Below are positions 42,094 to 62,246 of a DNA stretch of 64,000 nt, piece after piece (the first letter of the stretch is position 1; each line of letters opens with the position of its first letter). The DNA comes from Eubacterium sp. Lineage in GTDB: Bacteria > Bacillota > Clostridia > Lachnospirales > Lachnospiraceae. The translations under genes and the position numbers were made by a program. Below the pieces are notes generated by a model that worked only from the letters and a program-made list of their open reading frames with translations, searched no databases and had not been told where the DNA came from. The DNA lies in contig JAIKXQ010000059.1 in the NCBI GenBank assembly GCA_024684035.1, positions 12,232 to 76,231 of the forward strand, given 5' to 3'.

Positions 42094-42380
42094 AAAAAAA
42101 ACCTACATCTCTTCCTGCTTTTGAAAGAGACGTAGGATATTCTACGCGGTACCACTCTTCTTCACGAATCCTCGTGCTCTCATGGATACTATCTGATGCA
42201 ATCAGCCAGATGGTATATCCTGCTCCTGTAACGGTGAGCATCCGTCTGCGTCTACTGAACCGAAAAAAATAAACCGGTCGTTGGGGCAGCCACTCGGAGG
42301 GGAGTTCCATAAGTGTCTTCTGCTGTTTCACACCGGCCAACAGCTCTCTGAATTCCAACCACAAATGTACTGATCCTCGT
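42094..42380 (-). promoter_or_regulatory. T-box riboswitch, leucine specifier CUC
   Basis: AAGAGTGGTACCGCG T-box (42145-42159), AGAGA and GGTGTGAA stem I elements, GAA-CTC specifier (42302-42304), terminator with T run. Confidence 0.9.
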
Positions 42381-42475
42381 CAACGTATTTAACTTCATTC
42401 AACATAGCATTAAATTCAATAAAAGTCAACCATCGCCATGCTTATTTTTTAGCAGATGATGGTTGACCGTAAAAT

Positions 42476-44567: not shown

Positions 44568-46328
44568 ATGACAAAACTGTTTACCTATCTGAGAATGCAC
44601 ATGATTCAGACAATCCTCGCTCCTCTGTTCAAGATGCTGGAGGCTGTTTTTGAACTGATTGTGCCGCTCGTAGTCGCCCGTATGATCGATACCGGCGTGG
44701 CAAACCGTGACGTGCCATATTTGATCCGTGAGGGAATCATTCTGGTTCTTCTGGGAGTGATCGGCTTCCTTGCAGCTGTTACTGCCCAGTACTTTTCGGC
44801 AAATGTGGCTGTTATCACGGGAACCTCTCTTCGGAACGATCTGTTCCGTCATATCCAGACGCTGTCCTGGAGACAGATCGATGAGATCGGGACTTCAACG
44901 CTGATCACCCGCATGACCAGTGATATCAATACGGTTCAGAACGGAGTCAATATGTTCCTCCGCCTGTTCCTTCGTTCTCCCTTTGTGGTTCTGGGAGCGG
45001 TCGTGATGGCCTTTACCGTGGACACGCAGACGGCACGGGCTTTTGCCGTTGCAGTTCCGGTGCTGGCGGTGATTGTTTTTACAATTCTGCTTATAACCAT
45101 GCCCCTTTACAAAAATGTGCAGAAGAAGCTGGATGACGTTATGCGGATGACCCGGGAAAATCTTCTGGGTGTGCGTGTTGTCCGTGCATTTAACCGCCAG
45201 GAGGATGAAAAACGTGCTTTTGATCAGAATGCATCGGAGTACTATCGCAGACAGATTTTCGTGGGAAAGATATCCGCGCTGCTTAATCCACTGACCTATG
45301 TGGTCATCAATGCCGGCATCATCGGCATCCTCTGGATCGGTGGCCTTAGAGTCGATACGGGAGACCTTACCCGTGGAGAAGTCATCGCCCTCGTCAACTA
45401 TATGAGTCAGATTCTGGTGGAGATGATCAAACTGGCCAATCTCATCATTCTGCTCTCCCGCGCCATTGCTTCGATGAAGCGTGTGGATGCTGTTTTTGCA
45501 ATGGAGAATCCTATGAAAGACGGAGACGTTCCTCTTCCCGCCTGTCCGAAAGGCGGCATGGAGATCGATTTTAAGGATGTGACCTTCGGTTATGAAAAGG
45601 AAGCTGCTCCTGCGCTGGATCATATTTCTTTTCACATAGAAGGCGGATCGACCCTTGGCATCATCGGAGGTACAGGTTCCGGAAAGAGCACTCTTGTTCA
45701 TCTCCTCGGACGTTTCTACGATCCCGATTCAGGCAGTGTTCTTCTCAACGGAAAAGATCTGCGGGAAATGAAACTGGCATGGCTTCGGGGACGCATTGGC
45801 CTTGTACCTCAAAAGGCGGTGCTTTTCGCAGGAAGTCTTCGGGAGAATATGAAATGGGGGGATGAAGAGGCGACGGATGATGAGATCTACCGCGCCCTTG
45901 AAATCGCCCAGACAAGGGAATTCGTGGACGAAAAAAAGGAGGGGCTGGATCTTGGCATCGAACAGGAGGGACGCAATCTCTCCGGTGGTCAGCGGCAGAG
46001 ACTGACCATTGCCAGGGCGCTGGTACGTGAACCGGAACTGCTGATTCTCGATGACAGTGCTTCTGCCCTGGATTTCGCCACAGACGCGAAACTTCGGAAA
46101 GCTATCCGGGAAAGCAAGGGAAGATCCACGGTGATACTGGTATCCCAGCGAGTGAGTACCGTGCGGAATTCGGACAGGATTCTGGTACTGGACGACGGAC
46201 AGTCTGCAGGCTTCGGTACGCACCAGGAGCTTCTCAGAAGCTGTGACGTCTACCGTGAGATCTGTCAGTCCCAGATGACGGAGGAAGAAATCGCGGAAGA
46301 TCTTGGAAAAGGAGGTGACAGAGCATGA
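44568..46328 (+). CDS. ABC exporter, fused permease/ATPase (heterodimer subunit 1)
   Basis: GGTGSGKS, LSGGQRQRL, degenerate Walker B LILDDSASALD. Confidence 0.93.
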   Translation: MTKLFTYLRMHMIQTILAPLFKMLEAVFELIVPLVVARMIDTGVANRDVPYLIREGIILVLLGVIGFLAAVTAQYFSANVAVITGTSLRNDLFRHIQTLSWRQIDEIGTSTLITRMTSDINTVQNGVNMFLRLFLRSPFVVLGAVVMAFTVDTQTARAFAVAVPVLAVIVFTILLITMPLYKNVQKKLDDVMRMTRENLLGVRVVRAFNRQEDEKRAFDQNASEYYRRQIFVGKISALLNPLTYVVINAGIIGILWIGGLRVDTGDLTRGEVIALVNYMSQILVEMIKLANLIILLSRAIASMKRVDAVFAMENPMKDGDVPLPACPKGGMEIDFKDVTFGYEKEAAPALDHISFHIEGGSTLGIIGGTGSGKSTLVHLLGRFYDPDSGSVLLNGKDLREMKLAWLRGRIGLVPQKAVLFAGSLRENMKWGDEEATDDEIYRALEIAQTREFVDEKKEGLDLGIEQEGRNLSGGQRQRLTIARALVREPELLILDDSASALDFATDAKLRKAIRESKGRSTVILVSQRVSTVRNSDRILVLDDGQSAGFGTHQELLRSCDVYREICQSQMTEEEIAEDLGKGGDRA

Positions 46329-48115
46329 ACGAAACGAAAACTTTAACTGCAGAAAATAATAAGAAGCAGACGTTGAAACGGATCCTGGCATATATCCGCC
46401 CCTATAGTCCACTGGTGATCTGCTCTCTCCTTCTGGCTGTCGTATCTGTAGTTCTTCAGCTTCTGATTCCGATTCTGATCGGCGAAGGCGTGGACCAGAT
46501 GGTGGCCGGGGAATCCGTGAATACGGAGGCTCTTTTACAAATCCTCACAAAGATTCTCATCTGTATCGGGGCAACCGCAGCTGCCCAGTGGCTGATGAAC
46601 CATATGAACAATGTGATCACCTACCGGGTGGTTCGTGACCTGAGGACCAGGGCTTTTAATCACGTTCATGTACTCCCGCTCTCCTATCTGGATGTGAACT
46701 CCTCCGGCGATACCTTAAGCAGGCTGATCACCGATGTGGAGCAGTTTTCCGACGGCCTTCTCCTTGGTTTTACCCAGCTGTTTACGGGAGTGATCACCAT
46801 CGTCGGCACCATCGTGTTCATGCTTACCCTGCAGCCGGTAATTACCGTGATTGTCGTACTCTTTACCCCCCTGTCTTTCAGGGTGGCAAAACTGATCTCC
46901 GACAAGTCCTACCGCTATTTTAAAAATCAGTCCGAGGCCAGAGGCAAGGTTACCGATCTCACAAATGAGATGCTGGGCAATCTGAAAATCGTACAGTCCT
47001 TCGGCCGGGAACATGCAGTAATGGAGGAATTTGAAAAGAGAAACCGGGTTCTGGGAGAAAACAGTTTGAAGGCAACCTTCATCTCTTCTCTCACCAATCC
47101 GTCCACCCGTTTCGTAAATACTCTGATTTACAACGGCGTTGTTTTTGCCGGTTGTCTTCTCTGCTTCCTCACGCCCTTCGGTATGCAGGCGATGAGTATC
47201 GGTAAGCTCACAAGTTTTCTCTCCTATGTGAAACAATACAGCCAGCCCTTCAATGACATCACGGCGGTGATCACAGAGTTTCAGAATGCGCTGGCCTCTG
47301 CAGCCCGTGTCTTTGAGATCCTCGATGAAACACAGGAGACTGCGGACGACGCAGATGCCATCACCGTGGATCACGCAGAGGGGCGTGTAAACTTAAGCGA
47401 CGTATCCTTCTCCTACCTCCCGGATAAACCCCTGATCGAACATCTCAACGTAGATGTAACCGCAGGAAAACGCATCGCCATCGTGGGGCCTACCGGTTGC
47501 GGAAAGACGACATTGATCAATCTTCTCATGCGCTTCTACGACGTAAATGAAGGTTCGATCGCAGTCGACGGAACGGATATCCGTCATTACCGCAGAAGCA
47601 GCCTCCGCTCGAATTTCGGAATGGTTCTGCAGGACACCTGGCTGAAGGCCGGTACCGTCCGTGAGAACATCGCCTACGGACATCCGAAGGCGAGTATGGA
47701 TGAAGTCCGGGCTGCGGCAAAAAAAGCCCATGCAGACGGCTTTATCCGTCGCATGCCGCATGGCTATGACACGGTCATTGAGGAAAATGGAGGTAATCTC
47801 TCCGCCGGCCAGAAACAGCTACTCTGCATCGCCAGAGTAATGCTGTCCCTTCCACCGATTCTGATCCTGGACGAGGCTACCTCATCCATCGATACCAGAA
47901 CCGAGCACTATATTCAGAGAGCTTTTGATGAGATGATGAAGGGAAGAACAAGCTTTGTGGTGGCTCACAGGCTTTCCACGATCAGAGATGCGGATGAGAT
48001 CCTCGTCATGAAAGACGGACATATCATCGAGCAGGGAGATCACGAGACGCTCCTCGCGAAGAAGGGATTCTACAGCAGGTTGTACCACGCGCAGTTCGAG
48101 AAGACGGCGTCATAA
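46325..48115 (+). CDS. ABC exporter, fused permease/ATPase (heterodimer subunit 2)
   Basis: GPTGCGKT, LSAGQKQLL, LILDEATSSID, AHRLST; 4-bp overlap with the partner. Confidence 0.93.
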   Translation: MNETKTLTAENNKKQTLKRILAYIRPYSPLVICSLLLAVVSVVLQLLIPILIGEGVDQMVAGESVNTEALLQILTKILICIGATAAAQWLMNHMNNVITYRVVRDLRTRAFNHVHVLPLSYLDVNSSGDTLSRLITDVEQFSDGLLLGFTQLFTGVITIVGTIVFMLTLQPVITVIVVLFTPLSFRVAKLISDKSYRYFKNQSEARGKVTDLTNEMLGNLKIVQSFGREHAVMEEFEKRNRVLGENSLKATFISSLTNPSTRFVNTLIYNGVVFAGCLLCFLTPFGMQAMSIGKLTSFLSYVKQYSQPFNDITAVITEFQNALASAARVFEILDETQETADDADAITVDHAEGRVNLSDVSFSYLPDKPLIEHLNVDVTAGKRIAIVGPTGCGKTTLINLLMRFYDVNEGSIAVDGTDIRHYRRSSLRSNFGMVLQDTWLKAGTVRENIAYGHPKASMDEVRAAAKKAHADGFIRRMPHGYDTVIEENGGNLSAGQKQLLCIARVMLSLPPILILDEATSSIDTRTEHYIQRAFDEMMKGRTSFVVAHRLSTIRDADEILVMKDGHIIEQGDHETLLAKKGFYSRLYHAQFEKTAS

Positions 48116-48246: not shown

Positions 48247-48295
48247 AAAAAAAAAGAAACCGGCCAGTGCCTCGCGGCAACAGACCGGTTTCTTT
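48247..48295. terminator. Bidirectional terminator between the ABC pair and the tRNA
   Basis: AAAGAAACCGG...CCGGTTTCTTT flanked by A and T runs. Confidence 0.75.
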
Positions 48296-48301
48296 ATCTT
48301 A

Positions 48302-48376
48302 TCGGGGCAACAAGATTTGAACTTGCGACCTCACACTCCCTAAGCGTGCGCTCTAGCCAAACTGAGCCATGCCCCG
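48302..48376 (-). tRNA. tRNA-Pro, anticodon AGG, CCA not encoded
   Basis: Cloverleaf CGGGGCA-TG-GCTC-AGTTTGGCTA-GAGC-G-CACGC-TTAGGGA-GTGTG-AGGTC-GCAAG-TTCAAAT-CTTGT-TGCCCCG-A; C1:G72 and A73 Pro identity elements. Confidence 0.93.
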
Positions 48377-48523
48377 ATGACCTCTGTTTCTTTCGGAACA
48401 GAACAGTGATTAATATACACTGTTCTGTCGAAATAGTCAATCACTTTTTTGAAATTTCTTCAAGAAAAATTCAAACATCTGAATGCAGTGAATTCATCGC
48501 GCGTTCGATGGTCAGCTCGGGTC

Positions 48524-49012
48524 TCACTGCTCTTCGTTGATGTAGTTTACCAGTCCGCCGGCGTGGATCAGGTTCTGCATGAAGGGCGGGAATGCCTGTC
48601 CCTGGAATTTCTGACCGGTGGTTACATCTGTGATAAGACCGGAATCAAAATCGATGGAGACCTCATCTCCTGCGTTGATTGCCTTTGCTGCTTCCGGACA
48701 CTCAATGATCGGAAGGCCGATGTTGATGGCGTTCCGGTAGAAAATCCGGGCAAAGGTCTCTGCGATGACGCAGCTCACGCCGGATGCCTTGATGGAAATC
48801 GGGGCATGCTCACGGGAGGAGCCGCAGCCAAAGTTTTTGTTTGCCACGATAATATCGCCGGCCTGTACTTTTTTCGCAAAGGACTTGTCGATATCCTCCA
48901 TGCAGTGTGTGGCCAGCTCCGCCGGATCTGAGGAGTTCAGATAACGGGCCGGAATGATTACGTCAGTATCTACGTTGTCACCATATTTGAAAACTGTTCC
49001 TTTTGCCTGCAT
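48524..49012 (-). CDS. leuD: 3-isopropylmalate dehydratase small subunit
   Basis: [39 protein letters not shown]. Confidence 0.94.
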
Positions 49013-49024
49013 AGTATTCCCTCC

Positions 49025-50290
49025 TTACAGTCCAAGCTCTGACGGATCACTGATGTGTCCGGTTACGGCACTTGCAGCGGCAACTGCCGGGCTTGCAAGG
49101 TAAACTTCAGAATTGATATGTCCCATACGGCCTACGAAGTTACGGTTGGTTGTGGAGATACATCTCTCTCCGTCCGCAAGGATACCCATGTATCCTCCAA
49201 GGCAGGGTCCGCAGGTCGGAGTGCTGACTACAGCGCCGGCCTCGATAAAGATCTCAAGAAGTCCCTCGCGCAGTGCCTGAAGATAGATTTTCTGTGTGGC
49301 GGGAATGATGATACAGCGAACGTCATTGGCCACTTTCCGTCCCTTGAGAATTTCTGCAGCCTCACGAAGATCCTGAATTCTTCCGTTTGTACAGGATCCG
49401 ATGACACTCTGATCTACCTTTACCTCATCGAAGGATCCGATGGTCTTTGTGTTCTCTGGAAGATGCGGGAAGGAAACGGTGGACTTCAGTGTGGAGAGAT
49501 CAATCTCGATGGTTCTCTCATACTCTGCATCCGCATCTGCCTCATAGACGGTGTAGGGTTTTGTGGAGTGCTCTTTCATGTACGCTACGGTCACATCATC
49601 TACCGGGAAGATTCCGTTCTTTCCACCTGCCTCAATGGCCATGTTGGCGATGGTCAGACGATCATCCATGGAAAGATCTGCGACGCCTTCTCCTGTGAAC
49701 TCCAGAGATTTGTAAAGGGCACCATCCACACCGATCTCACCGATGAGGTGCAGGATCACGTCTTTACCGCTCACCCATTTATTCTTTTTTCCTTTCAGGA
49801 CTACTTTGATGGCGGAAGGAACCTTGAACCACGCTTTTCCGGTTGCCATTCCGGCTGCCATATCTGTACTTCCTACGCCGGTGGAGAAAGCGCCCAGAGC
49901 GCCGTAGGTACAGGTGTGGGAATCCGCACCGATCACCACATCACCGGCAACCACGAGTCCTCTCTCGGGGAGCAGTGCATGCTCGATACCCATCTCTCCT
50001 ACATCAAAGTAATTGGTAATGTCGTATTTTTTCGAGAACTCTCTTACCTGTTTGCAGTGTTCCGCAGACTTGATATCCTTATTCGGAATAAAGTGATCCA
50101 TAACAAGGGCAATCTTATCCTTGTCAAAGACCTGCTGTTTCTGAAATCCATCCATAACATCGATCGCCACCGGTGTTGTGATGTCATTTCCGAGAACAAG
50201 ATCCAGATTCGCCTCGATGAGCTGTCCGGCCTCGACGTGATCGAGTCCCGCAGCATGGGCAAGAATCTTCTGTGTCATTGTCATTCCCAT
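49025..50290 (-). CDS. leuC: 3-isopropylmalate dehydratase large subunit
   Basis: [36 protein letters not shown]. Confidence 0.94.
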
Positions 50291-61873: not shown

Positions 61874-61900
61874 TATGTATAAATCTTTGAAAATGATGCA

Positions 61901-62246
61901 TAAGCAGAGCTGTAAGCCGGGTTATGTCGTGTGCGATCATCTATCTGTGCCTTCCCGTCGCCGGGAAGTTCAAGCGACCCACCTGAAAGCGTGACGAGCA
62001 GCCACATAGCTTTACAATTCGGTCTTGCTTCGAATGGGGTTTACATGGCACACCCTGTTACCAGGGTGTCGGTAGTCTCTTACACTGCCTTTCCATCCTT
62101 ACCGCAAAAAGCGGCGGTTTATTTCTGTTGCACTGTCCCTGGAGTCACCTCCGCCGGACGTTATCCGGCATTCTGCTCTGTGAAGCCCGGACTTTCCTCA
62201 GCCGGCCCCTTTCGGTCCTGCCGGCCGCGATCGCATACTCTACTTA
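61901..62246 (-). ncRNA. rnpB: RNase P RNA (class A)
   Basis: GAGGAAAGTCCGGGC near the 5' end, AGTGCAACAGAAA, GTAAACCCC, and ACATAACCCGGCTTAC near the 3' end. Confidence 0.95.

Follow-up and report, generated by a model that had tools for sequence, protein, structure and literature searches.

A tRNA-Pro(AGG) gene in the probable place of tRNA-Pro(GGG) in a clade of rumen Lachnospiraceae, with adenosine or inosine at position 34

Introduction

Can a bacterium read proline codons with a tRNA whose anticodon begins with A, and would that base act as adenosine or as inosine? The question is raised by a tRNA gene in a 64,000-nt stretch of contig JAIKXQ010000059.1, analysed as a whole and called here the window. 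It belongs to a Eubacterium sp. genome (GCA_024684035.1; 3.08 Mb, 131 contigs, 48.8% G+C, 99.98% complete) whose closest named relative is the rumen Lachnospiraceae strain [Eubacterium] cellulosolvens LD2006. Recent reviews and preprints describe bacterial A-starting anticodons besides Arg-ACG as nearly absent, with only Leu-AAG and Thr-AGU retained over evolutionary time; in the newest survey these two are likewise the only retained bacterial ANN tRNAs, and other types are just scattered database entries. A preliminary description of the locus offered two ways in which the anticodon might be used, a TadA with a wider substrate range or an unmodified A34, and both are still live alternatives in the analysis presented here.

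Results and Discussion

A complete tRNA-Pro gene with anticodon AGG

The sole tRNA called by ARAGORN in the 64-kb window was a tRNA-Pro with anticodon agg (48301-48377, minus strand), and the same gene was matched by Rfam RF00005 at 48302-48376 on the minus strand (58.7 bits, E = 4e-10; gathering score 29). The gene is 75 nt long, has no encoded CCA and reads, on the minus strand, CGGGGCA-UG-GCUC-AGUUUGGCUA-GAGC-G-CACGC-UUAGGGA-GUGUG-AGGUC-GCAAG-UUCAAAU-CUUGU-UGCCCCG-A. The sequence gives a complete cloverleaf: an acceptor stem from C1-G72 to A7-U66, a D stem GCUC/GAGC, an anticodon stem CACGC/GUGUG, a T stem GCAAG/CUUGU, and A73 as discriminator. The anticodon loop (48337-48343) is UUAGGGA (U32 U33 A34 G35 G36 G37 A38), with the anticodon at 48339-48341: A34 at 48341 (T on the plus strand), G35 at 48340 and G36 at 48339. 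The identity set of bacterial ProRS consists of G35, G36, G72 and A73, and G37 is needed for TrmD; all of these are present in the sequence. Judged on these features, the gene is a predicted proline acceptor of the tRNA family RF00005. The intact cloverleaf with Pro identity elements and the A34 at 48341 had been recognized in the preliminary description, which did not give the minus strand.

A putative sigma-70-like promoter (TTGACT, 17-nt spacer, TATATT; 48412-48440, minus strand; 10/12 consensus matches) was the only such site found by a consensus scan of the region; its end lies about 35 nt before the mature 5' end, implying a short leader removed by RNase P. Directly after the tRNA lies an intrinsic-terminator-like hairpin, AAACCGG...CCGGUUU followed by nine U (48247-48296, minus strand). 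The segment 48245-48302 (minus) folds at -28.5 kcal/mol (z = -5.8; none of 200 shuffles folded as well); a simple terminator scan missed this hairpin because its stem is interrupted. With its own predicted promoter and a strong terminator, the gene is thus probably a stand-alone transcription unit. Its setting is an ordinary chromosomal one: on the upstream side, leuC/leuD-like genes of the aconitase family (48524-50290, minus strand; large subunit 49025-50290, small subunit 48524-49012; PF00330, PF00694) together with ilvC, and downstream a pair of ABC exporter genes that run towards the tRNA (44568-48115, plus strand; PF00664 plus PF00005). Two other RNA features of the window were identified with Rfam: a T-box leader (42123-42392, minus; 111.6 bits) and a class A RNase P RNA gene (61897-62246, minus; 298.5 bits).

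Contigs from four independent gut metagenome runs covered the gene and had no variant at 48341; sequencing error, raised in the preliminary description, and strain variation at this base are therefore ruled out. In contigs from other rumen samples (runs X12, X19, X25 and X27) the tRNA was identical but the terminator sequence after it was not (e.g. ...CCTAACGGCAACTGACCGGTTCCTTTTATG, plus strand), suggesting that close AGG strains or species are widespread in ruminant gut samples.

Replacement of tRNA-Pro(GGG) in the genus

The Pro tRNAs of the genome are AGG, CGG and UGG, and tRNA-Pro(GGG) is absent from it, in line with the earlier suggestion that AGG may stand in place of GGG. Within the genus (the [Eubacterium] cellulosolvens group), the AGG gene was present in six species (G000, which is the window's genome, G014, G006, G007, G008 and G016; the gene of G014 is identical), and its best match in 11 further species was tRNA-Pro(GGG). 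The AGG gene shares 88-91% identity with the GGG genes of the genus, and 82% with the UGG gene of its own genome. Synteny (tblastx) pointed the same way: the leuC/leuD-like upstream flank is common to the GGG loci of G017, G003 and G011 (L010, L011, L012), and the ABC exporter flank downstream to the GGG locus of G012 (L009). These shared flanks identify the AGG and GGG genes as positional orthologues. A maximum-likelihood tree of RpoB grouped the six AGG species in a single clade (UFBoot 96, SH-aLRT 97), whose sister is a GGG clade (100/99) and which lies nested within the GGG species.

The simplest history would be a single G34-to-A change in the resident GGG gene, and positional orthology and nesting agree with descent of the kind known from proL G34A mutants, that is, from a GGG gene by G34 to A. 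As in the A34-for-G34 replacements of the Leu-AAG and Thr-AGU type, the ANN tRNA is present, the cognate GNN tRNA is absent, and the state is conserved in a clade. A real and conserved AGG tRNA thus appears, from gene content and position, to have taken over the chromosomal place and the job of the GGG tRNA in this six-species clade of rumen Lachnospiraceae.

The preliminary description had noted that the loop context is that of the UGG isoacceptor and had considered a recent U-to-A change. The first part stands: the loop matches UUNGGGA, the context of the UGG and CGG isoacceptors, and some AGG genes elsewhere in Lachnospiraceae carry UGG-like or CGG-like anticodon arms. Against a UGG-type tRNA with a recently altered U34, or an error in sequencing or assembly, stand the same base in the contigs of all four metagenome runs, the identical gene of G014 together with AGG in four further species, a gene body closest to the GGG genes, flanks that are those of GGG loci, and a separate UGG gene retained in the genome on contig C128. 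Such an explanation is scarcely credible, and origin from a UGG gene is rejected on identity, synteny and phylogeny.

Distribution in Lachnospiraceae and the phylum

The family was surveyed with a pattern made of the D stem and the AGG anticodon arm in 401 Lachnospiraceae genera, one genome each. The pattern matched 118 of the 401 genera, against 3 control matches; about 117 of the matches were tRNA-like (~29% of genera), all with the loop UUAGGGA. The corresponding GGG pattern gave ~45 true genes among the 401 genera, almost all with an identical arm. AGG is thus commoner than GGG in the family, the remaining genera matching neither pattern, and a true AGG and a true GGG gene were never found in one genome among the 401. 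The anticodon had been called rare, which holds for bacteria in general but not here. Outside the family, Pro(AGG) was found in 0 of ~397 genomes from ~160 other families of the phylum (four pattern matches, all with non-complementary stems), an enrichment with a Fisher p = 7e-40.

The anticodon stems of the AGG genes are diverse across the family and some are identical to UGG-type or CGG-type arms; AGG has therefore arisen several times in the family, and from GGG in this genus. AGG is not a general replacement for UGG: a UGG-pattern match was missing in 43/117 AGG genomes vs. 84/284 of the others (p = 0.19). In the lineage with UCCGG or UUCGG anticodon stems, 16/27 genomes lacked a UGG-pattern match, vs. 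30% of non-AGG genomes (p = 0.004), and AGG may be the main proline tRNA there.

The genomic surroundings of Pro(AGG) vary. In some other Lachnospiraceae genera, those of the lineage with UCCGG or UUCGG stems, it adjoins Arg(UCU) (L357, G112:C37; L358, G292:C159; L359; L361). G112 and G292 each have two copies inside a few hundred bases, arranged in G292 as a pair of Pro(AGG)-Arg(UCU) units. The conserved cluster Pro-Gly-Arg-His-Gln-Lys has Pro(UGG) as its Pro member in other genomes; at L192 (G381:C48) that place is taken by a Pro(AGG) whose anticodon arm matches the UGG type exactly, and G381 has a separate UGG gene elsewhere.

Remodelling of the anticodon arm and selection on the gene

The loop is CUGGGGG in every GGG gene of the genus, and 10 of the 11 have the arm CACGG-CUGGGGG-CCGUG, the gene of G010 differing by one compensated stem pair (CUCGG/CCGAG). 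The same arm, with a Watson-Crick-capable C32/G38, is almost invariant in the tRNA-Pro(GGG) of ~45 genera, while the AGG, UGG and CGG arms vary freely across the family. Common to all AGG genes of the genus are C31:G39, U32, A34, A38 and G30:U40. From GGG to AGG, the arm therefore changed at 32:38 (C:G to U:A) and 31:39 (G:C to C:G), both compensatory pairs, and at 30:40 (G:C to G:U); besides A34, the AGG allele shares five further changes, four of them in the anticodon arm. In an alignment of eight distinct Pro tRNAs of the relatives, 100% of stem cells were paired and nine pairs changed on both sides (a number reached in 0/500 shuffles); 32:38 split cleanly, C:G in the GGG tRNAs and U:A in the AGG and UGG tRNAs.

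Between the two AGG subclades there are compensatory differences at 6:67, 7:66 and 28:42, and their intergenic flanks no longer align, which together argue for purifying selection on tRNA-Pro(AGG) and against a decaying copy. That the gene is silent or dispensable, CCU and CCC being read by tRNA-Pro(UGG) alone, is very improbable. Such decoding does seem workable, as ~60% of the sampled genera match neither the AGG nor the GGG pattern and appear to manage with UGG (plus CGG), but it leaves unexplained that all stem pairs are kept in six species while the flanks have diverged beyond alignment, that promoter-like and terminator-like elements are intact, and that the anticodon loop is invariant, with U32, U33, G37 and A38 kept, in all 35 distinct AGG tRNAs. 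A57 in the T loop was not supported as an AGG signature, 23 of these 35 genes having G57.

The A34 repertoire and TadA

Besides Pro-AGG, the genome encodes A34 only in Arg(ACG) and in its two Leu(AAG) genes; Arg-ACG, Leu-AAG and Pro-AGG were also the only A34 types among the 240 tRNAs in all loci fetched; neither Ala-AGC nor Gly-ACC was found in the genome or among those 240. These three are exactly the four-fold boxes whose anticodon ends in G36, and the chance of both non-Arg types falling in just these boxes is 1/21. A TadA reading U33-A34-N35-G36 would allow just this set, which argues for inosine. Leu(AAG) was found in every species of the genus tested (AGG and GGG species alike) and beyond it, both in further genera and in other families of the order, and is therefore older than Pro(AGG); in Lactobacillales it is an experimentally shown TadA substrate (PMC11472039). 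The two Leu(AAG) genes of the genome lie in tandem (contig C108:6704-6916, locus L270); there is no Leu(GAG) in the genome, and CUA makes up only 1.9% of its CUN codons.

The genome has a TadA gene, outside the window: a 447-aa open frame (contig C109:10494-11834, minus strand; locus L111) with the HAE...PCxxC motif, matching PF14437 (4.9e-53) and the S. aureus TadA 2B3J (3e-54). TadA forms its C-terminal domain, the N-terminal 290 aa being a Cof-type HAD hydrolase (PF08282, 3.5e-44). The TadA proteins of all six AGG species share a replacement of N by S at the position of E. coli D108 and of A by T/S at that of T111; both original residues are invariant in the 13 other TadA proteins of the genus (11 GGG species and two of unknown Pro type). 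The residue equivalent to D108 contacts the ribose of U33, next to the K106 'gate' (PMC9643335). In the rest of the family, the loop NPKAG, as found in GGG genera, was kept in 24 of 26 other AGG genera, the S/T substitutions recurring in two. The TadA loop changes are thus not required for AGG, and their association with it is weak (3/27 AGG lineages vs. 0/28, p = 0.11). Column-wise associations between AGG and GGG genera were also seen in the C-terminal helix; they are confounded by phylogeny and were given no weight. A faster TadA rate was confined to the four-species subclade (G006, G007, G008 and G016) and did not extend to the lineage of the window's organism.

No TadA homologue was found in the AGG genomes G225, G275 and G381 or in the GGG genome G328 (86-97% complete), only dCMP-deaminase-like matches. 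Arg(ACG) is kept in G275, G381 and G328, and only Arg(CCG) was seen in G225; assembly gaps may well account for all four cases, and for G275 and G381 they are the likelier cause, because Arg(ACG) is kept.

Inosine or adenosine at position 34

The proposed course of events is as follows. In the common ancestor of the six-species clade, G34 of the resident GGG gene would have changed to A at the same locus; the anticodon arm would then have been rebuilt by paired changes at 32:38, 31:39 and 30:40, and tRNA-Pro(AGG) would have taken over the role of tRNA-Pro(GGG) as reader of CCU and CCC. The TadA of the genome, presumably already editing Arg(ACG) and the family-wide Leu(AAG), would deaminate A34, a step that is favoured though putative. 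The mature Pro(IGG) would read CCU, CCC and, weakly, CCA, and the CGG and UGG tRNAs would cover CCG and CCA. We put the probability of this whole account, replacement plus deamination to inosine, at about 0.5. Leaving the inosine step aside, a working proline tRNA that replaced GGG at the same locus and had its arm rebuilt is strongly indicated by gene sequence, position and phylogeny. For A34 itself, inosine is slightly favoured, and an unmodified base is almost as likely.

With A34 unmodified, the origin and the role of the tRNA would be the same: A34 would pair with U and also read C, and some A and G, in the strong CCN box; the G34-to-A change would have been nearly neutral, and the arm would have been re-tuned (32:38 C:G to U:A) to balance a weaker third-position pair. 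This reading has not far below an even chance. The proL G34A tRNAs of Salmonella and E. coli stay unmodified, yet work, at normal levels and without fitness cost (bioRxiv 10.64898/2026.05.15.725136). An AGG-anticodon tRNA is not modified by E. coli TadA, and an orthogonal AGG tRNA without inosine reads CCU and CCC about equally, 12.9% vs. 10.3% (PMC11066159, where Oenococcus oeni is also cited as modifying only two of its four A34 tRNAs). The motif measured for S. pyogenes TadA is Y32 U33 A34 M35 G36 R37 A38, with M = A or C (PMC11472039); UUAGGGA fits six of the seven YUAMGRA positions, which speaks for inosine, but has G35 outside the motif; as the motif comes from another order, this only lowers the likelihood of editing here. 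As position 35 of this only measured relaxed motif does not agree, Pro(AGG) is not filed as a TadA substrate. Also on this side are the U32 of Pro(AGG), where the genome's Arg and Leu A34 substrates have C32, the absence of a TadA change in most AGG-bearing genera, and a new loop of the same form (UUNGGGA) as in the UGG and CGG tRNAs of this genome. Contigs with A at position 34 and no G variant were obtained from three metatranscriptome runs, although these contigs are long, include flanks, may derive from DNA or precursor RNA and so carry little weight. The 32:38 position covaries as a pair, as expected of a structural or decoding constraint. On the side of inosine are the ancestral loop CUGGGGG, which lacked the A38 of the YUAMGRA motif, the U32, U33, G37 and A38 kept in all 35 distinct AGG tRNAs, and the greater age of Leu(AAG); the 32:38 change, for its part, is equally well explained as a tuning of ribosomal decoding.

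What unmodified A34 accounts for less well is the distribution. A neutral change would be expected scattered wherever GGG genes exist, and Pro(AGG) is seen in 29% of one family's genera and in none of the ~397 genomes elsewhere; this concentration (117 of 401 genera) suggests a family-specific enabling factor and speaks for inosine. Moreover, the A34 repertoire fits a G36 rule of TadA and not a 'strong box' rule, under which Ala-AGC and Gly-ACC would not be missing, and two otherwise invariant residues of the TadA loop changed on the same branch as AGG. For the inosine reading, we tentatively propose, at somewhat less than even odds, that the TadA of Lachnospiraceae may be a three-substrate enzyme for all four-fold-box A34-N35-G36 tRNAs (Arg-ACG, Leu-AAG, Pro-AGG), with position 35 fully degenerate, and that in this genus it may have been further adapted by changes at the D108 and T111 equivalents, and possibly also by the HAD fusion.

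Proline codon use

In the window's genome, proline is encoded by CCU (17.6%), CCC (20.4%), CCA (9.6%) and CCG (52.4%), so that CCU and CCC together make up 38% of proline codons. A comparison of CCT/CCC usage had been suggested in the preliminary description; it was made between the whole genome of the window's organism and 13 relatives (~5,700-40,000 codons per relative) and showed no significant shift with AGG as against GGG. With other GNN boxes as the reference, the Pro U/(U+C) logit was 0.76 for AGG and 0.55 for GGG species (p ~0.1, non-significant, the lineages not being independent), and the window's genome had the lowest Pro preference for U over C of all those compared. As CCC has not been avoided since the switch, it must be read well by the AGG or the UGG tRNA. 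CCC being as frequent as CCU, with codon use unshifted, can be counted for unmodified A34, yet codon use fits both inosine and A:C reading by an unmodified A34 in the proline box.

Comparison with known systems

The closest natural precedent is tRNA-Leu(AAG)/IAG of Lactobacillales (Oenococcus oeni, Streptococcus pyogenes, oral streptococci). Like it, Pro(AGG) is a non-Arg A34 tRNA of a four-fold box which replaces the G34 isoacceptor, is conserved in a clade, and has G36 and the loop residues U33, R37 and A38. For Leu(AAG), however, inosine and the responsible TadA have been shown experimentally, whereas Pro(AGG) is known here from the gene alone and has a G35 outside UAMG. The hosts differ too: this one has 49% G+C, whereas 60-70% A+T has been reported where ANN tRNAs are fixed in a genus. 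In sequence terms, the closest cases are the proL G34A mutants of Salmonella enterica and E. coli (Chen et al. 2002, as cited; bioRxiv 10.64898/2026.05.15.725136), which have the same anticodon, arisen by G34 to A in a GGG gene at its own locus, and are functional in reading CCU and CCC; these are laboratory mutants of one base with unmodified A34, whereas the allele described here is natural and fixed in six species.

Cytosolic tRNA-Pro(AGG) of eukaryotes, IGG after the action of ADAT2/3, likewise has the same anticodon and replaces GGG, with no GGG gene left. ADAT2/3, a heterodimer, is indifferent to the loop sequence, whereas the only candidate enzyme here is a TadA of the homodimer type with a HAD domain fused to it. 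A four-fold box is also served by a natural A34 tRNA in Mycoplasma, tRNA-Thr(AGU), which works unmodified, without inosine; it belongs to reduced genomes with minimal tRNA sets, whereas the present genome has 3.1 Mb and keeps its UGG and CGG isoacceptors.

Pro-AGG is a third non-Arg A34 type beside Leu-AAG and Thr-AGU: it has become fixed in a clade, and many genera of a major family of gut and rumen bacteria carry it. The genus offers a clean natural experiment, with sister species carrying GGG or AGG at one locus, defined arm changes and two TadA loop residues, and for at least one AGG-clade species a named strain has been sequenced, [Eubacterium] cellulosolvens LD2006. A third TadA substrate, if real, would bear on the origin of eukaryotic inosine decoding and on the substrate rules of TadA as a base-editor scaffold; the three-substrate enzyme would then be an intermediate found in nature between bacterial TadA, with its single substrate, and eukaryotic ADAT, which is independent of sequence. 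Should A34 be unmodified, the clade would instead exemplify long-term tolerance of unmodified A34 in a free-living bacterium.

N-terminal extensions of TadA in the genus

All six AGG species have the HAD-TadA fusion, as do two GGG species, G004 and G010. In the GGG sister clade (G002, G003, G011 and G017), TadA has a highly charged N-terminal extension of ~100 aa instead of the HAD domain, and in G019, a species of unknown Pro type, the TadA open frame runs on upstream in a similar way.
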